A DNA stretch of 64,000 nucleotides from Macrostomum hystrix (Eukaryota > Animalia > Platyhelminthes): positions 19,282,001 to 19,346,000 of the forward strand of contig CATNEN010000001.1 in the NCBI GenBank assembly GCA_950097015.1, read 5' to 3'. A program made the position numbers and the translations under genes. Of this stretch, positions 9,001 to 64,000 are shown one piece after another. The first letter of the stretch is position 1. Each line of letters opens with the position of its first letter. The notes under the pieces were generated by a model. The model saw only the letters and a program-made list of their open reading frames with translations, had not been told where the DNA came from and searched no databases.

Positions 9001-9135
9001 CATGAGCACAGATTTGTAGGCTAATGAGCATTCATTAGTGTGAGGTCATGAGCACAGATTTGTAGGCTAATGAGCATTCATTAGTGTGAGGTCATGAGCA
9101 CAGATTTGTAGGCTAATGAGCATTCATTAGTGTGA
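1..9135. repeat. 46-bp tandem satellite (~198 units, runs off the window start)
   Basis: Unit TAGGCTAATGAGCATTCATTAGTGTGAGGTCATGAGCACAGATTTG repeated head-to-tail. Variation is nearly limited to aatG/Cag and gaGcAc/gaTcAc/gaTcTc. Confidence 0.99.
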
Positions 9136-26095: not shown

Positions 26096-26933
26096 CTAGG
26101 GGTGTAAATTGAGTGGTGCCTGTTAGGCGGTTGGGTAGTGCCGGCTGCCCGTCATTCTGTTGTTTCAGACCGTTTTGATTGGCTCGGCCTTGTCTTTGCC
26201 TTCTCTCACCCTCCTCCTCCGTCCCTTCTCTGTGTGTCCTGAGCCGCCACCTGATTGGCTGGACGCGGGTGTTGTCTGTCAAACCTTACCCCAGCCCTGC
26301 GTGGCTTTGCCCCTCCCGCCAATCAGCCCTGCGTGGCTTGCCCGTCCACCAGCCAGCGCGTACAGCCCTCCCTCCCTGCACGCTGATGGCTTGACTTTGG
26401 TGGTTTGTGCACCGCTAACCATGTCTGACCCACTCCCTCAGGTAGCTGCCCTATTTTTGTAGCATCGTCTGCCCCGTACCTGGGTTTTCGATCCGTAATG
26501 ACGGTCTCTCACTGCGAAGACTAAATTTATTGCATGAAAGAAATCTCATATGCCAGCGCCAATTCCTTACTGCACGATCTTACTATGGAGTACTGCAGGA
26601 GCGTCCAAACGCCTGGTTCATTGATTAGCGTAGTTTCAAATAATAGTACTGTAGGCTGGGGATCCGGAACTGACCGCAGTCACTGCACTTGCAAAAAGCA
26701 ACTAGAAAGTATATATCTGCGGGTGAATATTTCACGAGGTAAGTAGCCGAGTTGGCTTCTATTCTTTAGCAGGCATGAAAGCGCAGAATGCTTTCTGCCA
26801 AACATTCCTCAATTTTACTGCCCATTGACTCAGAAAACACAGCGCTGTGTGAGAAGACAATCACGTCGTTTGTGCAAAAATGGCTGTAAAATTCCAGTCC
26901 AGAATATCAGCGGAATCACTGCAGCGAAGTGCT

Positions 26934-27935
26934 TCAGTGATTCGAAAAGAGCCGTCTAATCTGTTCCTCCGTCAGCACCGAGTTGGCCACAGCGACGGCT
27001 CTGACCACGCCGTCCAGTAGGCCAGCAGTCAAACTGCGCCATCCGACCTTCAGGCAGAATTCTCTTTCACTAAAATTCGAGTTGGAAAACAATTTGAGCG
27101 CAGCTTCAGGTAGAAAAGCAGTTCCCAGAAAAAACTTGCAGCCGCCAGCCGACCTATTAAACACAACACCTGCAATGAAAAACTGCTCTGGCACTTTGGG
27201 CAGCACCGATCCTGTCCCAAACCGGCTCGGCTGACCAGGGTTCAGGTAGAGAGCGTGGCTGACACCAGAGCCAAAACTGTACTCCCAGAAGTGATCGCTA
27301 TAGCCGCTTGATCCGCATCTGAAAAGCTCAACGAACGACTGATCGCTGGGCTTTCTCCTCAGGTGCAGCACCCAGGTGTAGGAGCCTGAGAAGTCCAGAC
27401 CGACCGGATCGTCCACCCACAGTCGAGACGACACTCCGTCCATGCGAGCGCCCTCACTCGTCCACGTCACATTGCTGGATCTCATGGGATTCCTCTGTCC
27501 ACCAGGGCCGCACACCACATTCTCCAGAGCCGGTCCCCTGTCTCCAACCCACACAGCACTGAAGTGCTCGTTCGCCGTGATGGCATCGTACTCAGAGTCC
27601 ACAATGATCTCGCAGTCAAACTGATCTCGCAGTCCAGCAGTCGATGAGCTGATGTTGAAGAGGCTGAGCAGGTGGCACACCTGACTGAATCGGAACAGCG
27701 CGCACGAGGCATTTCGTCGTGTTCGCTGCACCACGCCGACGCTGTTGAGCTGGAACTCGCGACTCGACACGAAGCAGTCAATTAGGGAGACAGAAGGCTT
27801 CTGCCACGTCGACAGCGACTCGCTAAGACACTGAGACCGGCCAAGTCTGTAATGACTCAGGACAAACGATTCTTCAGATGGTTTAAGGCAGGCTAGAATT
27901 ATCAAAGCTACAGTAAGCACTACTTTGTATGACAT
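26934..27935 (-). CDS. Array copy B: secreted PAN-like + LamG-like protein (N-type 2, C-type beta), single exon, 333 aa
   Basis: ATG plus hydrophobic signal peptide MSYKVVLTVALIILACLKP. Core shared with A, C and E. Ends LDGVVRAVAVANSVLTEEQIRRLF. Confidence 0.75.
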   Translation of the reverse strand: MSYKVVLTVALIILACLKPSEESFVLSHYRLGRSQCLSESLSTWQKPSVSLIDCFVSSREFQLNSVGVVQRTRRNASCALFRFSQVCHLLSLFNISSSTAGLRDQFDCEIIVDSEYDAITANEHFSAVWVGDRGPALENVVCGPGGQRNPMRSSNVTWTSEGARMDGVSSRLWVDDPVGLDFSGSYTWVLHLRRKPSDQSFVELFRCGSSGYSDHFWEYSFGSGVSHALYLNPGQPSRFGTGSVLPKVPEQFFIAGVVFNRSAGGCKFFLGTAFLPEAALKLFSNSNFSEREFCLKVGWRSLTAGLLDGVVRAVAVANSVLTEEQIRRLFSNH

Positions 27936-28318
27936 TTTTCTTTTCTTTTTGTGGCGGTCGATGTTTGCAAGACAAATTTCTCTCTGCTGTTTTACGCGTG
28001 TTTAGAGTGAGAGAGTTTTATCATATTCTTCATGCTAGATTGAGTCTGATTGGCATTTGACATTGTGTGAATAGTTACAGGTGCCGCGTGTTTTGCAGGT
28101 GATCACACATTTTTCTCAGAGCTTTTGATGAATGCTTGTTGAGAAGATCAACTGTTGTACTGGAAATACATGCTGAACTAAGCTTTCAAGTCACTCGCGA
28201 GAACACAGGGGCAACCAGAGTGAAGCCCACAGTTTTGCTTGAAGTTAGGGCATTTTCTTAGAAAACCTCCTTTGACGGAGTTGATCGGAACTAGAGAACA
28301 ATGTCATATGCCTTAAAC

Positions 28319-28391
28319 AATCGTTTGTCCTGAGTCATTACAGACTTGGCCGGTCTCAGTGTCTTAGCGAGTCGCTGTCGACTTGGCAGAA
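28319..28391 (+). repeat. Inverted 73-bp duplicate of the copy B N-terminal coding sequence (repeated at 32474-32546)
   Basis: Reverse complement of ~27798-27870 with one mismatch. Confidence 0.9.
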
Positions 28392-28489
28392 CAAATTTGT
28401 AAATAATTTTCACCGGTAAAGTCCAATGTAGAGAACATTTGACTTTCTCTTCATATGCAGCACTCACAAGTGGGAAGGAGCCAGTTCAA

Positions 28490-28618
28490 ACCGATTGGGT
28501 CGACCGACCAACCGCAGTCGAGGTGAGACTCACTCATCCACGTCACATGCTGGATCTCAGGGGATTCCTTTGTCCATCAGGACCACATTCTCCAGAGCCG
28601 GTCCCTTGTATCCAACCG
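28490..28618 (-). pseudogene. Degenerate fragment of the array core (the second copy is split by the transposon at 32693/41493)
   Basis: CAGTCGAG...CACTCATCCACGTCACATGCTGGATCTCAGGGGATTCC...CCACATTCTCCAGAGCCGGTCC aligns to the core with deletions. Confidence 0.85.
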
Positions 28619-29242
28619 AGGACTTCTAAGATACTTCTAGGTGGTTCTTGTATCGAACCAAGGACTACTGAAGTACTAGCTAAGCACTAGTGGTCCTTGT
28701 ATCCAACCTTGGTTGTATCCTTATCTCTGACAGAAGCGGATACTGAAGCGTAGAGCTAGATTCTAATCAGCTTTAGTAAAACAAAATAAAAAATCCGGAA
28801 TTAATGCAGACCTACTCCAGCGTAAGAATGGATTGTAACACTCACTTATCGAATTTATAAAATCGTGGAACTAACGCACAAAACATTAAATTTCAGTAGA
28901 AGTATTCAGAAAACATAATTGAAACCAAGAAAAACAACACAGTTGAGTTTTTTAAAAGATCTACCAAAATGTATTGCTAGGGTATATTCGAAATCTAAGT
29001 CAGCAATGTTTGTTGTGCAAAAAGCATCGATGTACTAGCTACGTAAAAGTAGATTAAGTGCAAATTAAGATAATTATGACAACATGAAGTTTCAGTTTCC
29101 ATGGCCCGACTACTAAAAAACAGTTCGCGAAGATAAAGCATTACATTATCACCAAATTACAAATCTTAAGCATGTTAGAAAAAAATTTGCTCATAAGAGG
29201 AAAAGCTAGGATGAGACAACTAAACGAGACTCCTGTTCCTGC

Positions 29243-30250
29243 TCACAGCAGGTGGAACAGCATGCGGATCTGGCTCTCCGACAGCGCCGTGTTGGCGACG
29301 GCCACCGCACGGACCGAACCCTGCAACATGTACGAGTCAAGATCCCGCCAACCGACTTGAAGGCACGACTTGGTCATGAGTGGAAACAGACTGGGAGACA
29401 GTAGCAGCACGGCAGAATCTGGCAAAAAGTTGGAGCCGATGAAAAACTGGGCTTTGACAGCAATGCTATCAAAGACGACACCGACAACAATGAGCTGCTC
29501 AGAGTCAGTTGGTAGGACAGCCTTGAGAGACTCGTATCTCTCTTTTGAGTTCATCGGGTTCAGGTACAATTTTTTTGAAACTAGTCTATCACTGAATTCC
29601 CAAAAATGGGAAAAGATCAAATCTCTTTTCAACTGGCACTCATTCAGCTCGATGAAGCAGCATTGCTTCGGAGTTCTCTTCAGGTGCAGCACCCAGGTGT
29701 AGGAGCCTGAGAAGTCCAGACCGACCGGATCGTCCACCCACAGTCGAGACGACACTCCGTCCATGCGAGCGCCCTCACTCGTCCACGTCACATTGCTGGA
29801 TCTCATGGGATTCCTCTGTCCACCAGGGCCGCACACCACATTCTCCAGAGCCGGTCCTCTGTCTCCAACCCACACAGCACTGAAGTGCTCGTTCGCAGTG
29901 ATGGCATCGTACTCAGAGTCCACAATGATCTCGCAATCAAACTGATCTCGCAGTCCAGCAGTCGATGAGCTGATGTTGAAGAGGCTGAGCAGGTGGCACA
30001 CCTGACTGAATCGGAACAGCGCGCACGAGGCGTCTCGCTTGCTCCACTGCACCACGCCGACGCTGTTGAGCTGGAACTCGCGACTCGACACGAAGCAGTC
30101 GAGCAGGGAGACAGAAGGCTTCTGCCACGTCGACGGCGACTCGCTAAGACACTGAGCCCGGCCAACTCGGTACTGACTCACAACGTAGAATTGCTATGAA
30201 AGTTTTGCGAGCAATAATATGAGGAGCGTCCAAGCTATCGCTGTGGATCG
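29243..30250 (-). CDS. Array copy C: chimeric gene (N-type 1 from A + C-type gamma from E)
   Basis: 5' part and upstream flank match copy A (offset 4155). 3' part and downstream flank match copy E (offset 12958). Confidence 0.7.
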
Positions 30251-31088
30251 CTAGGGGTGTAAATTGAGTGGTGCCTGTTAGGCGGTTGGGTAGTGCCGGC
30301 TGCCCGTCATTCTGTTGTTTCAGACCGTTTTGATTGGCTCGGCCTTGTCTTTGCCTTCTCTCACCCTCCTCCTCCGTCCCTTCTCTGTGTGTCCTGAGCC
30401 GCCACCTGATTGGCTGGACGCGGGTGTTGTCTGTCAAACCTTACCCCAGCCCTGCGTGGCTTTGCCCCTCCCGCCAATCAGCCCTGCGTGGCTTGCCCGT
30501 CCACCAGCCAGCGCGTACAGCCCTCCCTCCCTGCACGCTGATGGCTTGACTTTGGTGGTTTGTGCACCGCTAACCATGTCTGACCCACTCCCTCAGGTAG
30601 CTGCCCTATTTTTGTAGCATCGTCTGCCCCGTACCTGGGTTTTCGATCCGTAATGACGGTCTCTCACTGCGAAGACTAAATTTATTGCATGAAAGAAATC
30701 TCATATGCCAGCGCCAATTCCTTACTGCACGATCTTACTATGGAGTACTGCAGGAGCGTCCAAACGCCTGGTTCATTGATTAGCGTAGTTTCAAATAATA
30801 GTACTGTAGGCTGGGGATCCGGAACTGACCGCAGTCACTGCACTTGCAAAAAGCAACTAGAAAGTATATATCTGCGGGTGAATATTTCACGAGGTAAGTA
30901 GCCGAGTTGGCTTCTATTCTTTAGCAGGCATGAAAGCGCAGAATGCTTTCTGCCAAACATTCCTCAATTTTACTGCCCATTGACTCAGAAAACACAGCGC
31001 TGTGTGAGAAGACAATCACGTCGTTTGTGCAAAAATGGCTGTAAAATTCCAGTCCAGAATATCAGCGGAATCACTGCAGCGAAGTGCT

Positions 31089-32090
31089 TCAGTGATTCGA
31101 AAAGAGCCGTCTAATCTGTTCCTCCGTCAGCACCGAGTTGGCCACAGCGACGGCTCTGACCACGCCGTCCAGTAGGCCAGCAGTCAAACTGCGCCATCCG
31201 ACCTTCAGGCAGAATTCTCTTTCACTAAAATTCGAGTTGGAAAACAATTTGAGCGCAGCTTCAGGTAGAAAAGCAGTTCCCAGAAAAAACTTGCAGCCGC
31301 CAGCCGACCTATTAAACACAACACCTGCAATGAAAAACTGCTCTGGCACTTTGGGCAGCACCGATCCTGTCCCAAACCGGCTCGGCTGACCAGGGTTCAG
31401 GTAGAGAGCGTGGCTGACACCAGAGCCAAAACTGTACTCCCAGAAGTGATCGCTATAGCCGCTTGATCCGCATCTGAAAAGCTCAACGAACGACTGATCG
31501 CTGGGCTTTCTCCTCAGGTGCAGCACCCAGGTGTAGGAGCCTGAGAAGTCCAGACCGACCGGATCGTCCACCCACAGTCGAGACGACACTCCGTCCATGC
31601 GAGCGCCCTCACTCGTCCACGTCACATTGCTGGATCTCATGGGATTCCTCTGTCCACCAGGGCCGCACACCACATTCTCCAGAGCCGGTCCCCTGTCTCC
31701 AACCCACACAGCACTGAAGTGCTCGTTCGCCGTGATGGCATCGTACTCAGAGTCCACAATGATCTCGCAGTCAAACTGATCTCGCAGTCCAGCAGTCGAT
31801 GAGCTGATGTTGAAGAGGCTGAGCAGGTGGCACACCTGACTGAATCGGAACAGCGCGCACGAGGCATTTCGTCGTGTTCGCTGCACCACGCCGACGCTGT
31901 TGAGCTGGAACTCGCGACTCGACACGAAGCAGTCAATTAGGGAGACAGAAGGCTTCTGCCACGTCGACAGCGACTCGCTAAGACACTGAGACCGGCCAAG
32001 TCTGTAATGACTCAGGACAAACGATTCTTCAGATGGTTTAAGGCAGGCTAGAATTATCAAAGCTACAGTAAGCACTACTTTGTATGACAT
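31089..32090 (-). CDS. Array copy D, identical duplicate of copy B
   Basis: Same 333-aa translation as 26934-27935. Confidence 0.75.
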   Translation of the reverse strand: MSYKVVLTVALIILACLKPSEESFVLSHYRLGRSQCLSESLSTWQKPSVSLIDCFVSSREFQLNSVGVVQRTRRNASCALFRFSQVCHLLSLFNISSSTAGLRDQFDCEIIVDSEYDAITANEHFSAVWVGDRGPALENVVCGPGGQRNPMRSSNVTWTSEGARMDGVSSRLWVDDPVGLDFSGSYTWVLHLRRKPSDQSFVELFRCGSSGYSDHFWEYSFGSGVSHALYLNPGQPSRFGTGSVLPKVPEQFFIAGVVFNRSAGGCKFFLGTAFLPEAALKLFSNSNFSEREFCLKVGWRSLTAGLLDGVVRAVAVANSVLTEEQIRRLFSNH

Positions 32091-33286
32091 TTTTCTTTTC
32101 TTTTTGTGGCGGTCGATGTTTGCAAGACAAATTTCTCTCTGCTGTTTTACGCGTGTTTAGAGTGAGAGAGTTTTATCATATTCTTCATGCTAGATTGAGT
32201 CTGATTGGCATTTGACATTGTGTGAATAGTTACAGGTGCCGCGTGTTTTGCAGGTGATCACACATTTTTCTCAGAGCTTTTGATGAATGCTTGTTGAGAA
32301 GATCAACTGTTGTACTGGAAATACATGCTGAACTAAGCTTTCAAGTCACTCGCGAGAACACAGGGGCAACCAGAGTGAAGCCCACAGTTTTGCTTGAAGT
32401 TAGGGCATTTTCTTAGAAAACCTCCTTTGACGGAGTTGATCGGAACTAGAGAACAATGTCATATGCCTTAAACAATCGTTTGTCCTGAGTCATTACAGAC
32501 TTGGCCGGTCTCAGTGTCTTAGCGAGTCGCTGTCGACTTGGCAGAACAAATTTGTAAATAATTTTCACCGGTAAAGTCCAATGTAGAGAACATTTGACTT
32601 TCTCTTCATATGCAGCACTCACAAGTGGGAAGGAGCCAGTTCAAACCGATTGGGTCGACCGACCAACCGCAGTCGAGGTGAGACTCACTCATCCCCAGTG
32701 GGAAAAAACGTTCCGCCTGACGTTCCGGCGACCGTCCGTTTTTGGTCGGGCGACCGGATTTTAGGCGGTATTAATGTCCGCACGCCTGGCGCGCCGGGCG
32801 GGCCCGCCCCGGGCGACTGTTATATATATTTTTAGCTTAAAATCCTTTCAATCTACTGTTAGTAGCATGTGATGAAACTCCATGAGTCTGATTTCTAGCT
32901 AGCTGCTTCCCATTCCCGCTTTCCGCTCGCTACCCGCTTATTGCTCCCGCTCCTCGCTACCCGCTCCTGTCCCACTCATTCCCGTGTTACTACGCGTTGA
33001 ATCGATTATTCCAGTACGTCACATCAGCAAGATAATGGAACTAGTATACCCTGCATGAGAGGCGTAAATATTTTATTTAAGCTAGCATTTTCGATTGTAT
33101 TTACGAGCGTATAATTTAAGTAGTAAAAAATTACATTTAATAATATGGAACATGCAACATAAAGTTATGACACGCAAGACATGGCATAAATTAAAGTAAA
33201 AAGTGCGAAGCTCAAATGTAAAATTAAGTTAAGTAATGCATTTTTCAGTTCAGGGGATTTCTGTTTCAGCATAATAAATAAAGTTT

Positions 33287-35533: not shown

Positions 35534-35852
35534 GTCGTAGACTCTCAGTTGAGTTTGGCTTCTGAATAGTTAGGACACTATATTCATATACCTGAGCTCA
35601 ACTCAACTCAACGATCTATTACTCAGCCCCCCCCCGATGCAGGTTGCTCATTGGCTGCCTGGGATTCACGTTTGGGATCACTTCCTCAGCCGCTCCCTGC
35701 ACATTCCCCAACTCCGTCTCCCTCTCCGTCAACCCTCTTTCTTTTTTAATTTTTCGTTATCACATTTTCTTACTACAGAATGTAATGCTATAATGCTATT
35801 ATTTCTACTATAATACTGGTACAATGACTATTCCTTTAATAGAAAAATCATA

Positions 35853-37853
35853 TTGACCCCTATAGATAGAATGTATACAAGCAGGCAAAAGCGGCGGCGT
35901 GTTGAGCAGCTGACTGATCTTCTGTTTAGTACCGACCGCAGGGCTAATACAAATGCAAAGTGCACTGTGAATGCTGTGAGCCAGGTAGAGTCGCAAGAGG
36001 CTGAAGACGTGCTGCAGGAAGTGGCTGCTGAATCACTCCACCACCCTGTTTGCGTTGACGAGCTGCCAGAGGAGCCTCTGACAAGCGGCTTAGAGCAAGA
36101 AGAGGCCATTTTCGACTCCGAACTCCGCGTGGAAGATCAGCGGAGCATGGAAACGAAGCTGCTCGACCTTCTCGTTGTCTTCTTCGTTCTCTACAATGTC
36201 CCTCGGGAGGGCATTGACTTCCTTTGCCAAGGACTCAACAAGCTTGGAGTACCGGCCCCGAAGTCTGCTTACGTGATTCGGAGTCGTCTGGAGGAAAGCA
36301 AGTCCGGAGGAAAGGAGCAGAAGATGTCCATGGTGAAAGTTGGTGAGGGGTACTTCAGGTACATTTCTATAGTCTCTAATCTCAAATGGCTATTCTCGAA
36401 AGGTCTCTTAAGACTCACAACACCAGATCCCTTGAGTTCAACGGACGAATATAAAGTCTACAGCTTGAATGCTTTTGTGAACTCTGACGGCCTCCCAACT
36501 TTTAAGTCGTCCAACTTTGGTCTATGGCCTCTTCTGATGAGGATTCCCGAGGTCTTCGCCAGGCCCTTTGCTATTGGACTTTATGCTGGCAAAGGCAAAG
36601 CCCCACTTGACGACTATCTTCGCGAATTCTGCAAGGAGGCCACAGAACTGTCAAGACAGCCGGTGAAAATATGCGACTCGATTGGCATAATGTTTAAAAG
36701 CTTTTGCTTCGTTGTGGACACCCCCGCTCGATCGTACCTGTGTAGAATCGCAGGACACACTGCTTACGATGGGTGCAGCTATTGCCGAGCCCATGGGCTT
36801 TATGTTCAGGGCAGAGTGACTTTTCCTACGAAGGTCGAAGCACCTAGAAGTGCAAAAGAATACCGCGCAGGACAGGAAACCAATCAGGCGAATAGAAGAC
36901 TGTCGCCATTGCTGAATGTTCCGAATGTCGACTTTGTCAAGTCCTTTCCGGTCGAGGTTCAGCATGCAGTTTTTTTGGGAACCGTTCGCCGACTGTTTAC
37001 TTATCTGTTTGACAAGGATGAGGGCCGGAACTGCAAGATTAAGCCAAAAAAGATTAGTCTTCTGTCTGACAGGATAGAGTCGATCGCCAGCTGGACTCCT
37101 TCAGAATTTCAGCGGAGACCCAGGAGATTGGACAAGGACCTCAAGTTTCTGAAGGCCAGTGAATACAGGCAATGGGTTCTGTACCTAGCACCTGTACTTT
37201 TTAAGGGCGTTCTGCCTGACTACCTGTTCGACAATTTCATGCTGCTGCACTACGCACTCTTCGTGTACTCCTCACCTCGCCACTCAAAGCGCTTCATTCA
37301 GGCAAAGACTTCAATTGAGGTTTTCGTGCAGCAATGTGCCACTTACTTCGGGCAGGTGTCCATTAGCTATAATATGCATGCACTTCTGCACCTGGATGAC
37401 TTCGTCCGGCACTATGGAGGACTGGCAGACATCACGACATTTCCCTTCGAAAATTACCTAGGCGGACTCAAACGGCGCATCAAAGTTACGCGACACATGG
37501 CTGCCCATTCAGTGAAACAGATTCTGCTGCTTCGAGAACTAACTACAGACGATGCAGTACGCCGGATCCAGTTTTCCAACAAGAAGCGGGACAACTGCTG
37601 CTATATTAGCAAGAAAGTCGTTTTAATCGACAACATCAGTGGAGCTGTGGCGGAGGGGAGAGTCCTGCAACCTGTGGAGAACGTGTACACGTATCCCTAC
37701 AAATCTTTGACTTTGGGCATTGGTGTCTACCGCCTGACTGAAGAGTCTGCAACTGGTAGTCCGACCCACAAGTGCTGGCTTCTGCCGCATGTCGACTGTG
37801 CGAGGTCTGATCTCTTCTTCGTGATTCCGCTGGCTGGAGAAGATGGATATTAG
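35853..37853 (+). CDS. EnSpm/CACTA-family DDE transposase, 666 aa (the true start may be the ATG at 35871)
   Basis: NSDGLPTFKSS...WPLL, DTPARSY...GHTAYDGCSYC, KASEYRQW, YNMHALLHL and FPFENYLG motifs. No stops. Confidence 0.93.
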   Translation: MTPIDRMYTSRQKRRRVEQLTDLLFSTDRRANTNAKCTVNAVSQVESQEAEDVLQEVAAESLHHPVCVDELPEEPLTSGLEQEEAIFDSELRVEDQRSMETKLLDLLVVFFVLYNVPREGIDFLCQGLNKLGVPAPKSAYVIRSRLEESKSGGKEQKMSMVKVGEGYFRYISIVSNLKWLFSKGLLRLTTPDPLSSTDEYKVYSLNAFVNSDGLPTFKSSNFGLWPLLMRIPEVFARPFAIGLYAGKGKAPLDDYLREFCKEATELSRQPVKICDSIGIMFKSFCFVVDTPARSYLCRIAGHTAYDGCSYCRAHGLYVQGRVTFPTKVEAPRSAKEYRAGQETNQANRRLSPLLNVPNVDFVKSFPVEVQHAVFLGTVRRLFTYLFDKDEGRNCKIKPKKISLLSDRIESIASWTPSEFQRRPRRLDKDLKFLKASEYRQWVLYLAPVLFKGVLPDYLFDNFMLLHYALFVYSSPRHSKRFIQAKTSIEVFVQQCATYFGQVSISYNMHALLHLDDFVRHYGGLADITTFPFENYLGGLKRRIKVTRHMAAHSVKQILLLRELTTDDAVRRIQFSNKKRDNCCYISKKVVLIDNISGAVAEGRVLQPVENVYTYPYKSLTLGIGVYRLTEESATGSPTHKCWLLPHVDCARSDLFFVIPLAGEDGY

Positions 37854-42200: not shown

Positions 42201-43289
42201 TCACAGCAGGTGGAACAGCATGCGGATCTGGCTCTCCGACAGCGCCGTGTTGGCGACGGCCACCGCACGGACCGAACCCTGCAACATGTACGAGTCAAGA
42301 TCCCGCCAACCGACTTGAAGGCACGACTTGGTCATGAGTGGAAACAGACTGGGAGACAGTAGCAGCACGGCAGAATCTGGCAAAAAGTTGGAGCCGATGA
42401 AAAACTGGGCTTTGACAGCAATGCTATCAAAGACGACACCGACAACAATGAGCTGCTCAGAGTCAGTTGGTAGGACAGCCTTGAGAGACTCGTATCTCTC
42501 TTTTGAGTTCATCGGGTTCAGGTACAATTTTTTTGAAACTAGTCTATCACTGAATTCCCAAAAATGGGAAAAGATCAAATCTCTTTTCAACTGGCACTCA
42601 TTCAGCTCGATGAAGCAGCATTGCTTCGGAGTTCTCTTCAGGTGCAGCACCCAGGTGTAGGAGCCTGAGAAGTCCAGACCGACCGGATCGTCCACCCACA
42701 GTCGAGACGACACTCCGTCCATGCGAGCGCCCTCACTCGTCCACGTCACATTGCTGGATCTCATGGGATTCCTCTGTCCACCAGGGCCGCACACCACATT
42801 CTCCAGAGCCGGTCCTCTGTCTCCAACCCACACAGCACTGAAGTGCTCGTTCGCAGTGATGGCATCGTACTCAGAGTCCACAATGATCTCGCAATCAAAC
42901 TGATCTCGCAGTCCAGCAGTCGATGAGCTGATGTTGAAGAGGCTGAGCAGGTGGCACACCTGACTGAATCGGAACAGCGCGCACGAGGCGTCTCGCTTGC
43001 TCCACTGCACCACGCCGACGCTGTTTAGACGGAACTCGCGACTCGACACGAAGCAGTCGATCAGGGAGACGGAGGGCCGGGGCTTCTGCCAGACAGACAG
43101 TGACCTATTAACGCAGACTGAATTTTTCAGCTTGTACGTTGCCAAGGCCGTTTTCGCATGTGCCATGACGCACAGAAGCAGAAGCACGAGTATGTCCTGT
43201 CCCATAGATGCGGATAACTCACTTTTTTGTTGGGCGAGTAGCTCTAGGAGTCGAAGCAGTTTTCGCATCTCTGTCACAATGCCTTTCAT
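42201..43289 (-). CDS. Array copy E: secreted PAN-like + LamG-like protein (N-type 3, C-type gamma); likely start at ATG 43205
   Basis: Signal peptide MGQDILVLLLLCVMAHA, shared core, C-terminal half identical to copy C. Confidence 0.75.
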   Translation of the reverse strand: MKGIVTEMRKLLRLLELLAQQKSELSASMGQDILVLLLLCVMAHAKTALATYKLKNSVCVNRSLSVWQKPRPSVSLIDCFVSSREFRLNSVGVVQWSKRDASCALFRFSQVCHLLSLFNISSSTAGLRDQFDCEIIVDSEYDAITANEHFSAVWVGDRGPALENVVCGPGGQRNPMRSSNVTWTSEGARMDGVSSRLWVDDPVGLDFSGSYTWVLHLKRTPKQCCFIELNECQLKRDLIFSHFWEFSDRLVSKKLYLNPMNSKERYESLKAVLPTDSEQLIVVGVVFDSIAVKAQFFIGSNFLPDSAVLLLSPSLFPLMTKSCLQVGWRDLDSYMLQGSVRAVAVANTALSESQIRMLFHLL

Positions 43290-44499
43290 TTTATGGGGCT
43301 ACGATCGTAATTTACACAGGCGATTAGTTTTCAGGATGCTGTTTGTCGATGGAAAATTTTAATGCATTCGCAATTATTTGCCCTGCAAAGCCATCACTGT
43401 GAGCTGACCAAACAGTGCAACACAGCTGCACGACTTTTGTCATTATCGGCGAATGACAAAATAAAAACCTTAAACACGCATCATAGCAGATGCAGCTCAA
43501 GGCGGCTTCAGTTAAAAACTTCAAAGAAGACAAACACGACAATTGAGGTGCCGCGGATGACACAAATTTGTTTCCGTTTGCAGCTCAATGTGGCAGCTGT
43601 TTTTGATAATCTTCAACTATTTAACTGGCTGCAAGTCGCACAGTTACTAATCATTATTTACATTAATTACGTGAAAAAATCCGCTGTTTTTGCTGTAACC
43701 TTAGACAACACAATGAGTTAAGTGACAGGTCGGCTAATTATGTGGGCATTTGAAATACCCAATGGTCTCTGCCCAGCGGAACAAATCCCTTTGTCTTTCT
43801 ATTGTTAAACGAATTTGATTCTCTTATAGTTTAAACGCCATGAAACTTTGCCCGTAAAACTTGATATTTTATGTTGCATAAACATAACACTTTCAACGAT
43901 ATCTAAGGCATCACTGCCCCCGACTTGCATAATTTATGAGCAAGTAAATTGCACCTGTCACTCTCTGATCAATTTATTATTTAGTTAAACGGAATGCTGA
44001 TAAGGAAAAAAATTCTGTTTTATTTTATCACGCTTCTCGCTTGGAATCAAACTAATCGATCAAAAACGCGTTGTTCAACGTCAAAGCTATTTGATGTTGC
44101 ACGATTTTTTATTCGAAGCAATGGCCCACAAAAACCTGTTTGGTGTTACAATAAAACTGATTATCTATTCAGTGAACAAAAGTCACAAAAATCCAGAAAA
44201 TTTTTGTTAACATTTAAAACTTTGCAGAGTGACAGAAAAAGACTACGGATTCCACTAACTTCCACTAACTTCGTAATTAAGTTAGATTTTTATCATAGCA
44301 AATCTGTTTAGGAAAATGTAAAGATACGAGCTAGGATCATAAGTACTCGTACTGTACTAAGCATGAAGACTAGTATAATATAAAGGTACGTGTTGGGCGT
44401 TGGGCGCCTCAGTTAAAATGTCTGCCAGTCAGTGCTTCATATCGATCTTGATGTACCGATTCATAATCCTGTGAGTCGCATCAGTTTCGCTCGTCCTGC

Positions 44500-54800: not shown

Positions 54801-57800
54801 TTCAACTATCGGGGCGATGTTTCTAGCGGTCTGTACAATGGGCCAGTGTCTTTTTCGCTTTTGCTTCATCAGTCTGCTGATTGGAATTGTCACATTGTAT
54901 AGTTTCTTTTCAATGCTGCACAAGTTGTGGCTTCGTTTTCTGTTAGAGCTACGAGTAGATTCGAAAGGTTTAAAGGCGGTGGCGGCCTGCGGCGAGAGCA
55001 CGTTAATTTGGGGCGCAGTCGCGGAGAGAAGGCTTTGGGGGCTTCTAGTGCAATTCACACCCACGAGGGCCAACCCCCAAGACACAATGAGACAGTCAGC
55101 AGATGTACAGTCCCTGTGTAAGTATCGTGTTTGCGTGTGCTCACGATATGGGATGGTATATCGTGATGGTATCCCACTGATCACGATATGGTCACGACTC
55201 CTCGCTGGCTGTGGATTGACTATCGCCAAAAATAATGTACAAGTGCCCACTGCCCTCCTGCACATATTATTACAATAAGAATCCAGGTGGAAAGTTTTTT
55301 TTCTTATGGTTCTTCTGGAGGAACATAAGGAACACTTGGAGGAACACTTGGTGCTTGGAAATTCAAGATTTTCTGGACCCAATTGTCGTTAACGTTTGAT
55401 CTCCATGAACTACCCGCAGGCTTCAAGAGGCCCGCAACGATTTGGCCTCCAAAGCGGAGGACATTGGGCGGCTGCAGCAGGAGATCATCGACATGGAGAA
55501 CCGCCGAGTTGAGCTGGCTGATGCTCACAGGTGACTGACAAATTACTGCTGCGTTTAGATGCCTGAAAATCAAAATCAGCTAACATAAAATAGCATTAAA
55601 TGTGCATTGTGCATACGGCTTGAGTGCAAGCGCACGTGGCACGGTTTGATTGGCTGGGGAGTTTGCTGTCTGCCCTAAACCGGTCTAGACCGGGATGGGT
55701 GGTTAGCTGTTGACGTGGCTGTCTAAATAAATGAAAAGGTGCGCAGGCCTTTTCATGCCTTGCAATCTTTTCAACCTTCTAAATCACAACCGCTATGGTC
55801 TTCCTTTGGCCACGCTGCCTCAACACAAGCACTAATAGCATTATTACAATTCTAACCATCTTCTGATTGTTAATCTCTGGCTGTTATGCTGACGGCTGTC
55901 GTTTGGAGGTCTTTTAACGATTTTAACCTCCGTGTTCTGTTGATTCTAATTAAATTTCTAGTTTAATACGCTTGTACCATAACGTGACTAAATTTTTCTT
56001 TATAAAAATGAAACATTTTTGACGCCGTGAAAATGCAGGGCCGAGCAGGAGGGCTGGCTGAACCCCAGCGAGCAGTCGGAGGACAGGTATTTCCCACTTC
56101 CCAGCTCCCGTCACTTCTAGAGAACAAAGTAATCTACATTCACCAAATCCCTGAAATAACTCTCCACAAAATCGGGAGAACTCTAAACAGTGCAATTCTC
56201 CCACCTGCCGTCACCGTCAAGCGAGTCGCAGCAGCGGCTGACGCGGCTTTTCCGCGGCGGTCGCCAGCAAAAAATTGGCGCCTTCGATCCGCGCGCCGAC
56301 GCGCAGGAGATCCGGCGCACACTGGAGCTGCACCGGCGCCGGCGAGAGGAGGCGCGCAGGTCGCCGGCCGATTTCGGCTTGTAATTAACGCGGCGGAATC
56401 ACCTTGATTATTACAAGGCGTGTCTGAAAAGTAGCGTTACTTTTACTTGGTGCGGAGATTTGGTGCGCCGCTTCGACACAAGTTTGGTGTCCTTCGAAAG
56501 CCGCATGTATCTTATTTTAAATGATAAAGATTCAACTGATATCGATTTGGATGTATATATGCATTTGAGTAGTGCGAGCGCTTTCAAACGACACCAAACT
56601 TGTGTCCATGCGACTTACTAAAAGTCCGCGGCAAGTTAAAGTAGCAATTATTTTGCGGACAACCCCTCGTAGAAGTGTTGGAAGTGTTGTTTTACTGAAA
56701 CTGTAACTTAAACTGCCATTTCTGTGCATATTCCTATAAGCATTATATCGATTATAAGAAAAGAGAATAGTGTATTGCATTTGCAACCTTAGCTAGAATT
56801 GTGTAACGTTTTCAGTACTAAAAAAGACCAACACTGCTGAGTTACTCTCTATTTTCTTCAGCGCACTCTATTTAATTTCCTAGCCAAGAAAATCTACCAA
56901 ATGACCTCTTTTAGGTCCATCCATTTTAAAGTTGTTATGTTACGCACAAATCATAATTTTGCCAGCACACGAGTAGTGAAAAACTAGAACAACTATTCAC
57001 CTAAATCATGATTCGCTGATAATATATTCACAGGTCCGCTGTGTTGATGTTTAACAAGCAGATCGCCGAAATGAAGGAACAGCTGACCAGAGAGCGAAGC
57101 GAAAGGTGAGATTTCTTCTTCACACTAACAGTAACGTAGCCAGAATGAGCGATAAGGTCTTAGTAAGAAAACAAAATAATTTTCAGAATGACTATTCAGG
57201 ACACAAACGACAAGCTGCAGGACACAATCGACAAGTTCAACAAGGAGCAGAACGCCTTCAATCGCCAGATGAACAAGCTCATCACGGATCTCAAGCACGA
57301 AAATGTCGCGCTTAACGACGAGGTGATTGCACAGCGCCCAATATGACTGTGGCCTCGCCACGGAATTGAGCTTGGTGCACGGAATGTGTTACCGTTCCTC
57401 TACTCACCTCATATGTGTTCTGCAATACCAAATCTCTAATGTGGCAGAGCAAAATAGCTGATTATGGCTCATTTCCCCCCATAATCGTACCCTCCCAGTG
57501 ATTAAAATGTATCACATGAGTAAATGCCAAATCTGTCGCTTATCCCCCTAACAGCACAACCAGCTTGTCGGCAAGATTAAAGAGGATACAGACCGGCGTG
57601 TCAGGCTGGAGGGCGAGATAGAGCATGGACGACGCGACTTCGCGGCCGTGACGAAGCAGAAGGAGGGCGTCATCGACTTCCTCGAGCGAGATCTGCAGCG
57701 ACTTAGCAGCGACAGGGCCCAGCGCAGTCGCGAGCTTGAGGAGCTACTGCCCAAGTTCACCGAGTTTGAAGCCTTCTTCGAGCGCACGCTGGCCGACTAC

Positions 57801-58742
57801 GAAGCGTTGAAGAAGGCGATCGTGGCACTGAAGAATCGCAAGACGGGCCTGGAGGAGAGCTCGCACCGCACTGACTCGCAGATCAGTCAGCTCACTGGCG
57901 AGATCTCGGAGCTGGAGCGGGAGAAGCAGCGGAAGCAGCAGCAGGCAGAGAGGCAGCTTGAGGAGCTGGCTGCGGAGCGGATGACGGCTGAGAAGGACAT
58001 CTACAAGCTCGGCTGCAAGCTCAAGACAGTACTGGAGGAGAACGCCCGGCTCCGCAACGGCATTCAGGGGTGCGCAATCAGGACTAGTGATGATCGCGGG
58101 GGGACCAAAACAACAGCTTGTATGGGGTGTACCAAAAAAGATTATAAAGGGGTATCCCAAATAACAGCTTCCAAAAGGGTCCCAAAATGGTGTAAATAGG
58201 GTTTTCAGAACAACAGTTTTTAATGGGTGTCCCAAAAATACTTTGCGTTGGGTGAAGTAAACAAGTCTGCATAGGTGTCCGAATTTTTTGCTTGCGTGAG
58301 GTGACCCAAAAATAATGTGCATGGGGGGGTGTCCCTAGCGACAGTATGAATGTGGTTATACGAGCTAGTTTTGGGGTTATAGTTTTTAGGGACCAGCTCG
58401 CAAAGCTGCGAGTGCTTACACAGCCGCTGAGAAAGATGAGATCTCTCATTCGATGACAGGTTCGAGCAGCGGATGGGCCGGATGCGACTCACCTGGGAGG
58501 CGGCGCTGCACTCCAAGGTGCGCCAGGAGGAGCGCCGAGTGGCCGCTCGGCAGGGTCTGGAGAGTGGGTGGCGGGATGACGCGGATATGCGCTCGGGATT
58601 CCAGGAGGCCGACCTGCGGCTGTTGGCCAACCTGGCCGACATCGTGGGCGAGACGGAGGCACGTGGCGCGGCGCTGGAGCGAGTCACGGACAGCCTGGTT
58701 GACGAGCTGCGCGGACTGGACGCATTCCTGCAGACAGCCTGA
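48834..58742 (+). CDS. CCDC175: CCDC175-like coiled-coil protein, ~15 exons (e.g. 48834-48912, ~49379-49465, ~49569-49680, 50341-~50476, ~50561-50792, 51846-51965, ~52587-52696, ~53708-53862, ~55421-55529, ~56222-56359, 57034-57105, 57188-~57322, ~57555-58068, 58460-58742)
   Basis: GT-AG-bounded coiled-coil exons. ELHRNKARDILETETIK...PDEINREIH-EAVRAARALN and LNERLADKAGEQISLNE resemble the CCDC175 N-terminus as recalled. AATAAA follows the stop (~58753). Exon edges are approximate. Confidence 0.65.
50900..51760. repeat. ~19-bp intronic minisatellite
   Basis: CTAGAGATGGGATCT(A/G)GAT units. Confidence 0.92.
51990..52515. repeat. 20-21-bp intronic minisatellite
   Basis: AACTGCCTGAAGGGATGT(TA/CTG) units. 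Confidence 0.92.
52850..53600. repeat. 30-bp (2x15) intronic minisatellite
   Basis: CCCAATCCACAAGAT-CCCAATCCACTGAAT units. Confidence 0.97.
56435..56650. repeat. Intronic inverted repeat, MITE-like
   Basis: GACACAAGTTTGGTGTCCTTCGAAAGC (56475-56501) pairs with GCTTTCAAACGACACCAAACTTGTGTC (56580-56607), with a weaker outward extension. Confidence 0.75.
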
Positions 58743-59007
58743 GTAGATTTGTAATAAAAACTCAATTATTATTAATTATTAAGCTACAAGAACTTCCAAG
58801 TTGAGATTAGTTAAAAAACTTGACGCTACCTAAAATTTAACTTTAACTGATGTACAAATATAAAATAAATAAAAAGCCCAAGTTACGATTCGTACATTAT
58901 TTGGCTTTCGTTTTCGCAAACACGAATGAGTTTTATTACAGGCTGAGCATTCAATCAACAAAAAATTTTTTTTTCATCAGTGATGTGTGATTTCTATTCA
59001 CCACTAC

Positions 59008-59170
59008 TCAGTGCTCGGTGAATCAGTGCTAGGTGAATCAGTGCTGGGTGAATCAGTACTGAGTGAATCAGTGCTTGGTAAATGAGCGCTGGGTGAATAA
59101 GTGATGCGTCAATCAGAGCTGGGTGAATTGGTGTTTGATGAATCAGTGACGATTGCTGGGTTAATCAGTG
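59008..59170. repeat. 15-bp minisatellite abutting the LINE 5' end
   Basis: GAATCAGTGCTGGGT units. Confidence 0.9.
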
Positions 59171-59179
59171 TTTCACCAA

Positions 59180-60288
59180 TCCGTCATGAGGGGCGAAACC
59201 AAGGATCTCTGTCAGCATTCCATCATCCAGGACACCCGAGTCAAAGGCATGCGCATCAACTTGACCTTCCGAGTAACTTCTCCAGCCATCCAGGACATCG
59301 ATGACTTCCGTCAAGCTCATTCCAAGCCGTCCAAACCCCTTGACACTTCCGTCTATGAGGTCGTCGAGGTATGTGACCGAACCATCACCGAGGAACAATC
59401 TTCTCCTTCAACTTCTCAACGTCAAGGTAACTCTTCTGTCCACGACAGCCAATTTCCGGACCAGCCACCTTCCAATTCCACTTCTCAGCCGCCGAAAGGC
59501 AAGGTCGCTCCAGTTCTCTTCCTCCTTCCAAAATCGACTCTTGATGAACTTAGGTTCGAGAGGTTCCTTAAGGATAACTTCCCAACAGTCCGCATCAGGT
59601 CCGTCCAACGCTGCTTCTATTCTTCCGGCTTTAAATTCTTTGCTCTTGACTTCCAAGGCTACCAACATCTAACTTCCGACGAGCTTAGGCATCCGACCAT
59701 CGACGGCATCCAGGTAGAGCGCCCGCCTTTCCATCCGACGTGAGGACGCCCAGGTCAACTCCAGGCGCCTTCCTCCAAACATCACGACTCCAAAAGCCTT
59801 GTCCTTTATCATCCGATAGTTATCACTTGCCACAGATCTCAAGGATCTTCTCTTAAGAATCCAGACGGTCGAGCCCAAAGTCTCAGGCATTGTCCGGATC
59901 GTTTCTTCTTCTTCCAACGAGCCGACTCAGTTTGTCCGAGCCTTTACTTCCGACTTTAGTACTCAAGCCCGACGCATCTCCAAAGGTATCCACATAGGCT
60001 TCTTTCACTTCACGAATCACGAATACATCTCCATCACCATTGATACCAATGGCAATGGTAACGAACTTCAGCATCTCAGCATCTCACTCTTCTATAAGGC
60101 CCCAACACCGGAGACCCTCAACACCAGCCTTCTTGACTCTCTTCTCTCATCAAAGTACAGCCTGCTTCTCGGTGATCTCAACTGCAGAATGGCGGCACTC
60201 CAGGGTGGTGAAAGCCCAGAAAATTACACTGGAAAGCTACTCTGCCGATGACTCATAGATTCCGATTCACCTCCCGTGATCGCTTTTA
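59180..60288 (+). mobile_element. Degenerate non-LTR retrotransposon 5' part: AlkB-like C-terminal motif, ORF1-like region and internally deleted APE endonuclease
   Basis: VMRGETKDLCQHSI...RINLTFR; ORF1-like EPTQFVRAF...KGIHIGFFHF; then EYISITI...FYKAP...LLLGDLNC...ENYTGKLL (AP-endonuclease motifs, 60000-60250). Confidence 0.75.
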
Positions 60289-60289
60289 C

Positions 60290-61422
60290 ACAATTTTAAC
60301 ACCACGGGCAGCAATCTGAGCACAACATTCTTCGGAGCTCACCTTGAAGTGATCCAGGCCTTCATTGGGCAACACATCTTCACGCGCCCGCCGGAAGCTA
60401 ACTCGCCTCTATAAGTCGGCATTATTGCTAACAACCTTTATCTGCGATTCGGCCTTACTATTTGGCAAGATGCCTTCATCTGTGCTAATTGGTGCCACCT
60501 GTCGCTCGGGCCTCCTGCCGTAAATAATCCTCACGACTACTGGTATGACATGTACAACAACCAGATACCGTACCAGTTTCAGCCCCTCGCCAGCTTCGAA
60601 CTCCACCGCGCCGTGCCGTACGAATGGGCTCTAGGTCTGGGTAAAGTTGAGGCTGACATCACCGCCGACTACGTTGTGTTTGGCGCAGGCTCATGAATCC
60701 TGCTGGCCTGCACACTAACTACGGCTCTGACAATTATGGCAAGCGAGCGGTGTCACCGCTTTGGTCAAAGCTGGAGCTTTATGGCTACCAAGTCGTTAAT
60801 GCGCTGAATCAGTACTACGACGCGAACGTGGCTGTTGCTATTACGCAATATCAGTTTCCTCACAACCGTTCAGCTAGCCATGTTGCCGGTACGTACGTCG
60901 CGGCACCTCCTCTCGGCGCTCCTGCCATCATTGCTGGTACGCCTTTTCTGAATCCTGCAACTCTGCTTAGTGCTAGCAACTCAAATCACTTCATCATGTC
61001 GCCGTCCATCACAACTGCCAACATGATCCCAGGCCTGTCTGCTTTTCTGTTGAGCATGATAGGCGGGAAGAAGGACTGGAACCTATCTGGCGTGTGCCCA
61101 TCTGCCTTCATGCCTTGCTGCATTGCGCCTTACAATATGGACTTCGGCCTTGCAGCTCTTGTCAGGACAAGTCGGCCAGGACGTGTTGCGTGCTCACCGC
61201 GACAAGGTAGCCGGCGAGGTTGCCAAGGCTATCGAGGCGGTCAAGCGCGGCACAGGAGACCGGCATGTCGAGCGTGAGCAACTGGATGCCCGTGCTGCTG
61301 CTAGCGCCCAAGCGGTTGACAATGCTGTCAACGCCGCCATAAGGGTCGCCAACCAAGCGGCGGGTGAGGCTACCGCTGCGCCGCCTGCACCGGGTAGTGC
61401 GCAGTCTACTGCTTTAAACTAG
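60290..61422 (+). pseudogene. Endogenous totivirus-like capsid (ORF1) C-terminal remnant
   Basis: Long coding-like frame with a premature TAA (~60412) and frameshifts (~60690, ~61160). VPYEWALG motif and Ala-rich tail ending at T TTA AAC TAG directly before the RdRp frame. The capsid call rests mainly on position. Confidence 0.65.
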
Positions 61423-61470
61423 GCTGGGCACGCTTGACCGGGCAGTATAGCAATTGCTGTCTGCTCGGAT
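61413..61470 (+). promoter_or_regulatory. -1 programmed ribosomal frameshift signal (slippery TTTAAAC + downstream stem-loop)
   Basis: T TTA AAC at 61413-61419 is in the correct X XXY YYZ phase. The -1 frame reads open into the 61434 ORF. Hairpin CCGGGCAG-TATAGC-AATT-GCTGT-CTGCTCGG at 61439-61468. Confidence 0.85.
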
Positions 61471-62850
61471 TCGAGGCTGATCTTGACAGTTTATTTGGCG
61501 ACAGCCTCAAAGCGTGTCTTAAATATTTTACACCTCGCCAAATAAAAACTGACTTGCGTTTTGTTCGCTCTAATTTTTGTTGTGTTTATTGCCGTGTTGT
61601 GCATGATATTGCCTCTGCTGTACCTTACTCAACGCTGTTTTTTATGCCTCCCACTCTTGCTCCTGTTCATTGCCCTGATTTTAATATTCATTATTCGTTT
61701 GCTTTTCCTCATCAATGCACGCGCGACCACTTGCTGGCTGTCGAGCTTGAGTACCAGCGAGGCATGATGCCACAAGATCTGTACGACGCGTGGTTCGAAT
61801 TAAATTCTGCAAATTATGCCACTGACTTTGGCTCCAGGTCTATGTTGTACTGGGATGTGCGTCAAGATTTTCTGATTGGTGACTATCAATGCAGCTCCGT
61901 CAATGATTATTTGCCAACTAATGTCATTATAGACAACCTGTTGAATGAGGGGCTGCCTCTCAAGCACTGTTGCCGTGGTTCTTACTTAGAGTGGCGCCCT
62001 GGTTTGCCTGGTCACTTGCTGGAGCGTTGCTTCGACTTTGTTGACGATTCTAACAGGACTATGACTTCTATGCGCGCTAGCCACTTGATAGATTGTGCTC
62101 GCAACTTGGGCAAGGCCGAGATGTGGGAATCTGCCCTTGCCTCTGTCCTCAGCGTCTTACCTGTTGGATCACTAGATCACACCGTCGCCACGTGCCTACT
62201 CTTCGCTGTCAGTGATTTTGAGAATTGGCGGCGCTACAGCGAGTTAATGAGACCAGATGCAGCATGTTGCCTGACTGTCGACGGATTTGCCAAATATACA
62301 AAGGCTTTGTCTGTTGCGAAGCGCCGCACCCAAAGATGGGTAGACGGCTCGCCGATGAGCGTATCTAGCGTTGCTATTTGCGCCTATCTAGAAATGGCCA
62401 CTGGCAGGAACAGAACATTGACTAATTGGGATGATGAGATAAAAAAGCGCTGTCATGAAGTGCGAGTCATCTTGGACCTCTTGGAGGATGACGACTATCA
62501 TAGACGCATGGAAGACGCGCTACTGGTACGCACCCGTGAATTAGTGCCTGGCTGCGTTCATGAAATCAGCTACAAGGAGTACGTTGCCACTAGATATCTC
62601 CACATAGCATATGGTTCGAGTTGTGGCGCAAAAGCTCACACTGCTGATGGCAACCGCACTTTCCATTTAAACAAGCGCGGGCTATTCGAGTGTCTTCCTG
62701 CCAGTGATATATTAACCTGGCTGGACCTAGAGCCTTCTCTATTATCTATCGGTAGCGAGAAGGGTGAGCCAGGCAAGTCACATGAGATCCTCGCTTCTAA
62801 TATAGTGGCCTACGTCATTGTGGATTGTTTAGTGCTGATGGTGCTGCAAC
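61413..62850 (+). CDS. Totivirus-like (Ghabrivirales) RdRp, N-terminal ~480 aa, truncated before motifs A-C
   Basis: YLEMATGR...NWDDEIKKR, YGSS, LNKRGLFE and SEKGEPGKSHEILA (motif F-like K.E.GK.R.I). No ATG is needed because it is entered by frameshift. No GDD catalytic region. Confidence 0.82.
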
Positions 62851-63155
62851 AGCCGACTATGTGAGGACGACCTGGCCTACTATACCTCAGCACATCATTC
62901 AACTAATCAGGAATAGGCGTAGGCTTAGAAAGATGTATCACCAAACTAGGATAGACGAATTCAGTCTCAGCCAACGGACTTGCTACACAGATTAGGAAAG
63001 AAATCCAACAGTTTAGAGTTAACAAATTCAATAGCCTTTGCACCAAAATCACTCTAGCTAGCCTTAAATTCGACAACAATAAATTCTGGAAAGACATCCG
63101 GATAATGATGGGCACCCAGAGGCAATTAACCAAATTTCCAAATCTAGTCTATCTA
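62851..63155 (+). mobile_element. LINE ORF2 inter-domain (APE-RT tether) fragment, Jockey/I-group-like
   Basis: IPQHIIQLIRNRRRLRKMYHQTR [frameshift] ANGLATQIRKEIQQFR...NKFWKDIR...FPNL is typical of the region between the endonuclease and RT. Confidence 0.75.
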
Positions 63156-63223
63156 GATTAGCTAGTAGCTAATCTACTAGCTAAACCACGAAGTGATAAA
63201 ATGAGGCCAGAACCCAGTACCTC

Positions 63224-63224
<1 letters not shown>

Positions 63225-63262
<38 letters not shown>
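63225..63262. repeat. (ATT)n microsatellite, possibly the (TAA)n tail of a minus-strand retroelement
   Basis: About 12 perfect ATT units. Confidence 0.85.
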
Positions 63263-63263
<1 letters not shown>

Positions 63264-63617
63264 ATTGAGGTGCGCACGCCGATTGGGTTCTGAATTTTTT
63301 GTTTATTTGATGTTTGAGGCTGCCTGAACTGAGGATCAGTATTGAAGGCTTCTTTTTTGAATATGTTGCATGCTGAACTTGTATCCCAGCCCCAATGCTA
63401 ATGGACTTTTATTTGTCAGCCATCACACACTTAAGTTACGCTCTGCTCCTTTTGTCTATGTTCCGCAGCCCACAGAGATGCATCTCTGTGGATCCCCTCA
63501 GCATGTTTACATATAAAGAAAGTCTTGTTACAAATACACGCACAAAAAGGGACTTCATGTCACACTCCCATTAAGCATTACTTCGTCTCCATTGAGGTGC
63601 AAGCTACAGAAACATCA

Positions 63618-64000
63618 ATGGCGTCGCGTAGCCTTGGCGAACTGCCTCTGGAACATGCGGCTCGCGCGCAGACTTGGCTCATCGCTTTCGAGGCGATAGC
63701 TCGCGCCAAAGGATGGGAAGACAAAAGCGACAGGAAATGCATTGCTGACAACTTCCTAGCCTGTTGCGGCCTCAGCGCTGTGGAAAAGTTACAGAATCTA
63801 ATCTCGCCGCGAGCCATTACTGATCTGGCATTCACAGAAATTCAAGATGAATTGCTGAATTATTTGCGACCCAAAGAAAAACTTACTATTGCCGAACGTG
63901 TTCGCTTCTTCTCGGTTCGACAAGCACCAAAAGATTCCATAACCGACTTCGTGAGTCGCCTACGTCAGGCTGCGAAGGACTGTAAGTTTGACGACTTAAA
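63618..64000 (+). mobile_element. Ty3/Gypsy-type LTR retrotransposon gag, 5' part (runs off the window)
   Basis: MASRSLGEL...FLACCG...LISP...YLRPKEKLTIAERVRFFSVRQAPKDSITDFVSRLRQAAKDCKF is a retrotransposon gag signature. No LTR identified. Confidence 0.85.

Follow-up and report, generated by a model that had tools for sequence, protein, structure and literature searches.

We found that a ~2.6-kb stretch near one end of a 64,000-nucleotide piece of the Macrostomum hystrix genome (hereafter the window) is, with a probability that we put at about 0.96, the fossil of a double-stranded RNA (dsRNA) virus. The insert is an internal fragment, ~35–40% of a viral genome, that runs from a broken upstream frame (ORF1) across a -1 slip site into the RdRp frame (ORF2). 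A reading of the letters alone had placed an endogenised virus segment at 60290..62850, close to the extent that we obtained, which starts at ~60278, has its right end at 62845–62882 and spans ~2605 bp. The interpretation of that segment as a genomic fossil of a dsRNA virus is borne out by viral homology and by an assembled contig that runs through both junctions. The features discussed below are as follows, in window coordinates.

59165 to 60277, plus strand: left flank, a multicopy repeat that probably represents the 5' part of a decayed LINE, identified by paralogues, depth and motifs that we take to be those of a LINE
60278 to 62882, plus strand: whole viral insert, delimited by a paralogous X1 contig that aligns to 60277 and again from 62883
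60280 to 61422, plus strand: broken C-terminal part of viral ORF1, identified by collinear profile matches
61398 to 62864, plus strand: open -1 frame, N-terminal ~45% of ORF2 (RdRp), which ends between motif F and motifs A, B and C
61413 to 61419, plus strand: slippery heptamer T TTA AAC, abutting the stop TAG of ORF1 (61420–61422)
61426 to 61519, plus strand: predicted three-way junction, with outer stem 61426–61435/61510–61519 and hairpins 61438–61468 and 61473–61508
62883 to 63266, plus strand: right flank, same repeat family, with a paralogous contig 87% identical over 62883–63149

The -1 frame, which had been described as open for ~480 codons, is 488 codons long from stop to stop (61398–62864; 483 codons counted from the slip site). 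The longest frame in 1000 Markov-2 simulations of the insert was 259 codons, so none reached 488. Searching 1.84 billion representative proteins with HMMER returned 90 matches (E ≤ 0.001, best E 5e-36, 24–42% identity), and the strong ones were mostly proteins of ~950–1070 aa aligned over their first 400–500 residues. The expectation that 61413–62850 would lead to the Pfam family RdRP_4 held through these homologues, 35 of the 36 scanned carrying that family; the frame itself had no match in Pfam, and its RdRP_4 assignment rests on the homologues. We looked up 30 clusters of matches: five are named after viruses (Murri, Lotchka, Hubei toti-like 9, Mute swan feces associated toti-like 2 and Hangzhou paraphaenocladius impensus totivirus 1), two come from arthropod genomes, two are labelled 'hypothetical' and 21 are unnamed. 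Comparisons of the frame with PDB sequences and with the ESM Atlas, a search for related loci from the single protein, and word-based near and longer searches returned nothing. An alignment-based structure model of modest quality (pLDDT 52) had 16 matches at E ≤ 0.001 in a library of viral structures (best 8.8e-15), RdRps of toti-like viruses and chrysoviruses in the 13 of 16 cases that carry a name, and no match at that threshold in the PDB. A single-sequence model of the same frame was discarded (pLDDT 34).

Most of the motifs that had been picked out by eye are also those of this polymerase group. W..E...R, GS, NK and K.E.GK are present and aligned with conserved columns of the RdRP_4 relatives; the remaining one, LxGR, is absent in its literal form, the column reading ATGR. 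From the start of motif F the frame runs on for 35 residues, and motif A lies ~66 residues after F in the relatives. The catalytic motifs A, B and C (GDD) were not found in the frame, which stops before them and so cannot encode an active polymerase. We took the 30 columns in which at least 90% of 45 full-length relatives agree; five of them differ here, two of these in the motif F region, against a leave-one-out median of 2 for the relatives; judged from the alignment, this excess would fit decay, deep divergence or both.

Upstream of the slip site lies what had been taken for a decayed ORF, and its decay is plain from one in-frame stop (60412–60414) and two frame changes, near 60690–60705 and within ~61075–61200. 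The stop-free pieces of ORF1 are 60280–60411, 60415–60693, 60657 to ~61170 and ~61170–61422. We built an ORF1 profile from nine relatives (eight virus contigs and P0017) and searched it against 994 stop-free segments of the window. It matched 60657–61274 (E 5e-11, profile positions 888–1010), 60415–60693 (E 1.3e-6, positions 809–884) and 60280–60411 (E 2.4, positions 750–812). These three pieces are collinear with the last third of the profile, an arrangement that pairwise comparisons support, and ORF1 pieces match the virus contigs L008 and L007 with E 2e-6 and 6e-5. The last piece, which contains the slip site, had no significant match to the relatives, and its frame is supported by the layout. 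Atlas matches for an ORF1 piece were rejected, having scores under 0.8, and a search with P0017 for more ORF1 proteins returned P0017 alone.

The layout proposed from the letters, a capsid frame followed by a -1 frameshift and an RdRp, thus stands as ORF1, -1 slip site and RdRp, and the capsid label is the part without a match: ORF1 of the eight relatives hit no capsid family in Pfam and had no significant match in the PDB. For SpFV1 and CiTV1, the function of ORF1 is given as unknown in the account in PMC3832450, and many toti-like viruses are described as encoding their capsid in the ORF1 position (PMC9413294). We consider the viral ORF1 product likely to be a structural protein and a candidate capsid.

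The upstream frame 61063–61422 terminates ...GCT TTA AAC TAG, so that the expected T TTA AAC TAG is found at 61413–61422, and the stable hairpin that had been noted ~20 nt downstream is present at 61438–61468, where it starts 18 nt past the heptamer with a pair probability of at least 0.97 in all three folding contexts. The frameshift signal had been called intact, which is true of its sequence; its activity is a prediction from that sequence. Of 13 related virus contigs, five have a heptamer immediately 5' of the ORF1 stop, and in one of the five it is the identical heptamer. KF298277 and KF298268 are also reported with a heptamer directly before the ORF1 stop, and the layout is described for mosquito and chironomid sequences (PMC3832450). 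The slip site lies ~450 codons from motif F here, compared with 452, 434 and 472 codons in the three closest contigs, L001–L003.

The 101-nt stretch that follows the heptamer (61420–61520) has a predicted fold of -47.1 kcal/mol (z -6.19, with 0 of 200 shuffles as good), and of 101 folding segments over the insert it alone has z below -3. In the predicted three-way junction, the outer stem starts 6 nt after the heptamer and forms in two of the three folding contexts. Stimulatory structures are typically found 5–9 nt after slip sites of the consensus X XXY YYZ (PMC3542737), and the predicted three-way junction, rather than the hairpin 18 nt away, is the likely stimulator of -1 frameshifting. In the virus, to judge from its homologues, ribosomes translating ORF1 would pause at this downstream structure and slip back one base on U UUA AAC, and the fraction of ribosomes that did so would make an ORF1-RdRp fusion. 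We found no meaningful Rfam match for the three-way junction; a single Rfam match on the (TAT)n run of the right flank was taken as chance. Within the RdRp frame, TTTAAAC recurs at 62666 and TTTTTTA is present at 61638; neither has a strong fold, and both were set aside.

A fold with z below -3 follows the slip site in one of eight relatives, and among 160 virus loci no nucleotide match to the frameshift element exceeded 14 nt. A 2446-bp contig from organism B (run X3) matches window positions 61414–61462, the slip site plus hairpin, at 42 of 49 nt; such a match, with 7 differences in 49, has a chance expectation of ~2e-6. This contig is possibly a second toti-like insertion or a virus.

Both junctions of the insert lie within a single 3165-nt contig assembled from run X1 (59873–63037), which has 0 differences from the window. 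Besides the insert, this unitig takes in 405 nt of the left flank and 155 nt of the right, and its depth is 92.1, compared with 86 for the contig of a neighbouring gene. X1 keeps the introns of that gene and is therefore DNA, and since one assembled contig passes through both junctions at single-copy depth, we conclude that the insert is genomic; X1 is possibly the source of the window and hence not independent of it, and the comparison was of contigs rather than reads. RdRp homology stops at ~62843, and the right junction lies between ~62845 and 62883. The sequence-only reading had staked its claim on similarity to viral RdRps and on junctions joined in genomic DNA, and both were found. On the evidence of these contigs, from what may be the source run, the insert adjoins host DNA at genomic depth and is decayed, as is characteristic of an endogenous viral element; its one stop and two frame changes are incompatible with a replicating virus.

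A second sample with the same organism label, X2, is probably RNA, since the GT..AG introns of the neighbouring gene are skipped in it. Three short X2 pieces cover part of ORF1, with 3, 3 and 1 differences from the window, at a depth of 2.7–5.4 that is prone to errors. Together these contigs (window 60258–61229) reach the left end of the insert with 20 nt of flank. One of them has 26 gap letters within 60618–60813. There were no X2 contigs on the RdRp part, which has no bearing on expression.

In the insert, ORF1 on the 5' side overlaps an RdRp ORF on the 3' side that is read in the -1 frame, with a slip site of the form X XXY YYZ, and the polymerase of the insert is distant from those of the known viruses with which we compared it. 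Identity to the 45 full-length relatives is 22–30% over residues 95–470, with 30% the best. The RdRp of the insert occupies a long branch (1.62) without a supported sister in two trees, a quick one of 64 of 91 rows, from which 27 short or partial matches were dropped, and a careful one of 39 of 48 rows, from which nine were dropped because the cutting motif was not found and from which P0059 is absent. The first tree paired the insert with P0059, another long branch, a pairing that we distrust. With the same long-branch caveat, the second tree places the insert outside a 100/100-supported clade that holds L007 and L008, which we take to be CiTV1 and SpFV1 and which we presume to belong to Spiciviridae. 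With no close relative, the best full-length one being 30% identical, and a long, unplaced branch, the suggestion of a probably undescribed virus is reasonable, and its ascription to this animal lineage is likely. The label Totiviridae-like needs narrowing: the relatives are unclassified toti-like viruses rather than classical totiviruses, and their ORF1 is homologous to that of SpFV1/CiTV1-type viruses. The order Ghabrivirales comprises 19 families (PMC12779748). Three of the homologues, P0009, P0070 and P0033, come from long contigs (96 kb of a sand fly, 27.8 Mb of Caligus and 430 kb, respectively) and probably represent further endogenised copies from this virus group.

The DNA on both sides of the insert belongs to one multicopy repeat family. 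Paralogous contigs are ~86–91% identical to the flanks, and depth rises to ~970, compared with 86–92 for single-copy DNA. The left flank contains an ORF1-like piece followed by an endonuclease-like piece that reaches the junction, and we take its motifs, Y.P...LLGDLN...N..G..L, to be those of a LINE endonuclease. From ~62860 the right flank presumably reads as a LINE ORF2 linker-like segment, followed by a tail, the (TAT)n run in which the flank terminates (63224–63266). Searches of the flanks against Pfam and the PDB gave no LINE domain support, even with X at the stop, and no RT domain was found in the LINE-like copy; we regard the flanks as likely to be one decayed LINE copy. A paralogous 775-nt contig has a 68-nt match to the window that stops at 60277, and the match takes up again at 62883, its position 507. 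The simplest reading, deduced from these two matched sides of the paralogue, is that ~438 nt (~440) of the repeat were replaced by the insert, which we assume to be about the length of LINE expected at this position.

These junctions bear on how the viral piece entered the genome. The insert lies on the same strand as the LINE-like reading frames, and both of its ends are internal to the viral genome. No target-site duplication was found, the longest word common to the two junction regions being 5 nt, and there is no A-tract, and hence no 3' poly(A), at the right end of the insert. Target-primed LINE insertion, as in endogenous bornavirus elements, leaves both a target-site duplication and a 3' poly(A). 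Sense orientation, internal viral ends, junctions with neither duplication nor poly(A), and LINE sequence that seems to have been replaced lead us to favour template switching by a LINE, with somewhat better than even confidence. In a germ-line cell, the LINE reverse transcriptase would have left its own RNA for the plus strand of the virus, where it read 2.6 kb from the middle of the polymerase gene back into ORF1 before it returned to the LINE RNA. The LINE and the viral piece would have been inserted together, with ~440 nt of LINE sequence replaced, and the germ-line copy would then have decayed neutrally, acquiring one stop and two frame changes and making no functional protein. Sense orientation arises by chance with even odds, and a later deletion would likewise erase a target-site duplication. 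Template switching has been cited as a mechanism for retrotransposon-made viral DNA in mosquitoes, and viral integrations in Aedes are reported to be enriched near LTR rather than non-LTR elements (PMC5497376).

A less likely route, to which we still give appreciable weight, is that viral cDNA was patched into a resident LINE copy, by double-strand-break repair or by target-primed insertion, and that LINE sequence was lost at repair or later. Repeats offer large targets for such an event, and other deletions are apparent in the LINE-like copy when it is set against the architecture that we assume for the element. Isopod EVEs, moreover, are described as lacking target-site duplications and have been argued not to derive from retrotransposition (PMC4231630). 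This route must be weighed against the lack of a duplication or poly(A) at the insert, and the sense orientation and internal viral ends suit template switching at least as well. Template switching, our preferred entry route, can also be combined with several other propositions into a one-step LINE-virus-LINE chimera of a deep undescribed toti-like lineage that has non-arthropod hosts, is present in the genomes of at least two related species and has the frameshift element as the part best conserved between them; taken whole, this combination is doubtful.

The fate of the insert after its arrival allows a further alternative, that the fossil was co-opted, being transcribed and kept either as a source of antiviral small RNAs or for its truncated RdRp frame. 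The three breaks are confined to ORF1 and leave the 1.45-kb RdRp frame whole, which is slightly odd for neutral decay, but this clustering lacks significance (P = 0.085), and co-option need not be invoked to explain it. The three contigs on the ORF1 part in X2, a probable RNA run, would point the same way but have an error-prone depth (2.7–5.4). Planthopper toti-like EVEs are reported to yield piRNAs and one protein (PMC10636211), and the organism B contig matches the slip site and hairpin. Set against these points are the changes at 5 of 30 conserved columns (leave-one-out median 2), the missing catalytic motifs and the breakage of ORF1, which is needed to bring ribosomes to the slip site, and we judge co-option improbable. 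An assembly chimera, or contamination by an infecting virus, is the least probable account of all: X1 is possibly the source run, both junctions lie in repeats and contigs rather than long reads were compared, but a single unitig spans flanks and insert at the depth of the neighbouring single-copy gene, X1 is DNA by its retained introns, a stop and frame changes interrupt the insert, and X2 has the left end of the insert with 20 nt of flank.

Beyond the insert, a spliced host gene for a coiled-coil-like protein occupies ~55500–58860 on the plus strand, with introns shown by X2 joints, and ends ~300 bp short of the repeat around the insert. On the other side, right after the (TAT)n run, ~63267–64000 is likely an LTR and the start of a Ty3/gypsy-type gag (weak Retrotrans_gag match in Pfam, E 0.087; multicopy depth). 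Five open frames of 314–365 codons on the minus strand (25094–32156 and 42201–43298) form a tandem gene family whose members are nearly identical in the N-terminal half and vary in the C-terminal half; the one copy scanned had no Pfam match. An exon-like frame at 22349–22861 resembles the small GTPase CPLANE2 (E 4.9e-10); together with the GT-AG introns, it marks the DNA by its letters as eukaryotic and likely animal. A 679-codon frame at 35814–37853 had no match in Pfam; by eye, it resembles a DNA-transposon transposase. At 1–9135 and throughout the window there are tandem repeats, a 46-bp satellite (~199 copies) and many minisatellites with units of 14–32 bp.

Toti-like EVEs (ToEVEs) are well known: 5686 elements have been reported in 593 arthropod species (PMC10636211), others are known in an isopod (PMC4231630), and genome integration of this virus group has been noted in a mosquito (PMC3832450). 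Like the arthropod ToEVEs, the insert is a genomic fragment homologous to toti-like ORF1 and RdRp and has frameshifts, and its size falls within the 446–10,814 nt range of planthopper ToEVEs (PMC10636211). Unlike them, it lies inside a LINE-like copy, spans the ORF1/ORF2 junction with a slip site and a strong downstream fold, and has no close cognate virus that we could find, identity over the shared region being 30% at best.

Among viruses, the best sequence matches are to unclassified toti-like viruses with RdRps of ~1000 aa (Murri, Lotchka, Hubei toti-like virus 9, Hangzhou paraphaenocladius impensus totivirus 1 and L001–L003), which share with the insert an equal distance from slip site to motif F and a heptamer directly before the ORF1 stop. 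The insert differs from them in falling within no supported subclade (22–30% identity over residues 95–470) and in its heptamer, U UUA AAC in place of G GGA AAC or G GAA AAC. With SpFV1/CiTV1-type viruses (L008, L007) it shares ORF1 homology and the -1 frameshift layout, whereas it lies outside their clade and has motif F ~450 codons from the slip site, compared with 715 in L008. SmedTV and related planarian toti-like viruses are, by description, alike in being monopartite dsRNA viruses of an invertebrate with an ORF1-ORF2 fusion, for which the account of SmedTV proposes a +1 shift on UUU C, in contrast to the -1 shift here (bioRxiv 10.1101/551184). A search of the open-access literature found no paper on this element or lineage, including on endogenous viruses or totiviruses of Macrostomum; the supplementary ToEVE lists of PMC10636211 may include relatives.

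The insert therefore does not represent a new system, toti-like fossils being well known; what it contributes is a further lineage and a single informative insertion. The dsRNA virus on record here is without a close relative in a set of 1.84 billion representative proteins, and the insert ties its lineage to a host genome. Also preserved is a -1 frameshift signal that is compact, testable and predicted to fold unusually strongly, and the junctions bear on how RNA viruses without a DNA stage reach germ-line DNA. If the one-step chimera proved true, the locus would be a rare clean record of double template switching and would also provide a new three-way-junction stimulator of -1 frameshifting.
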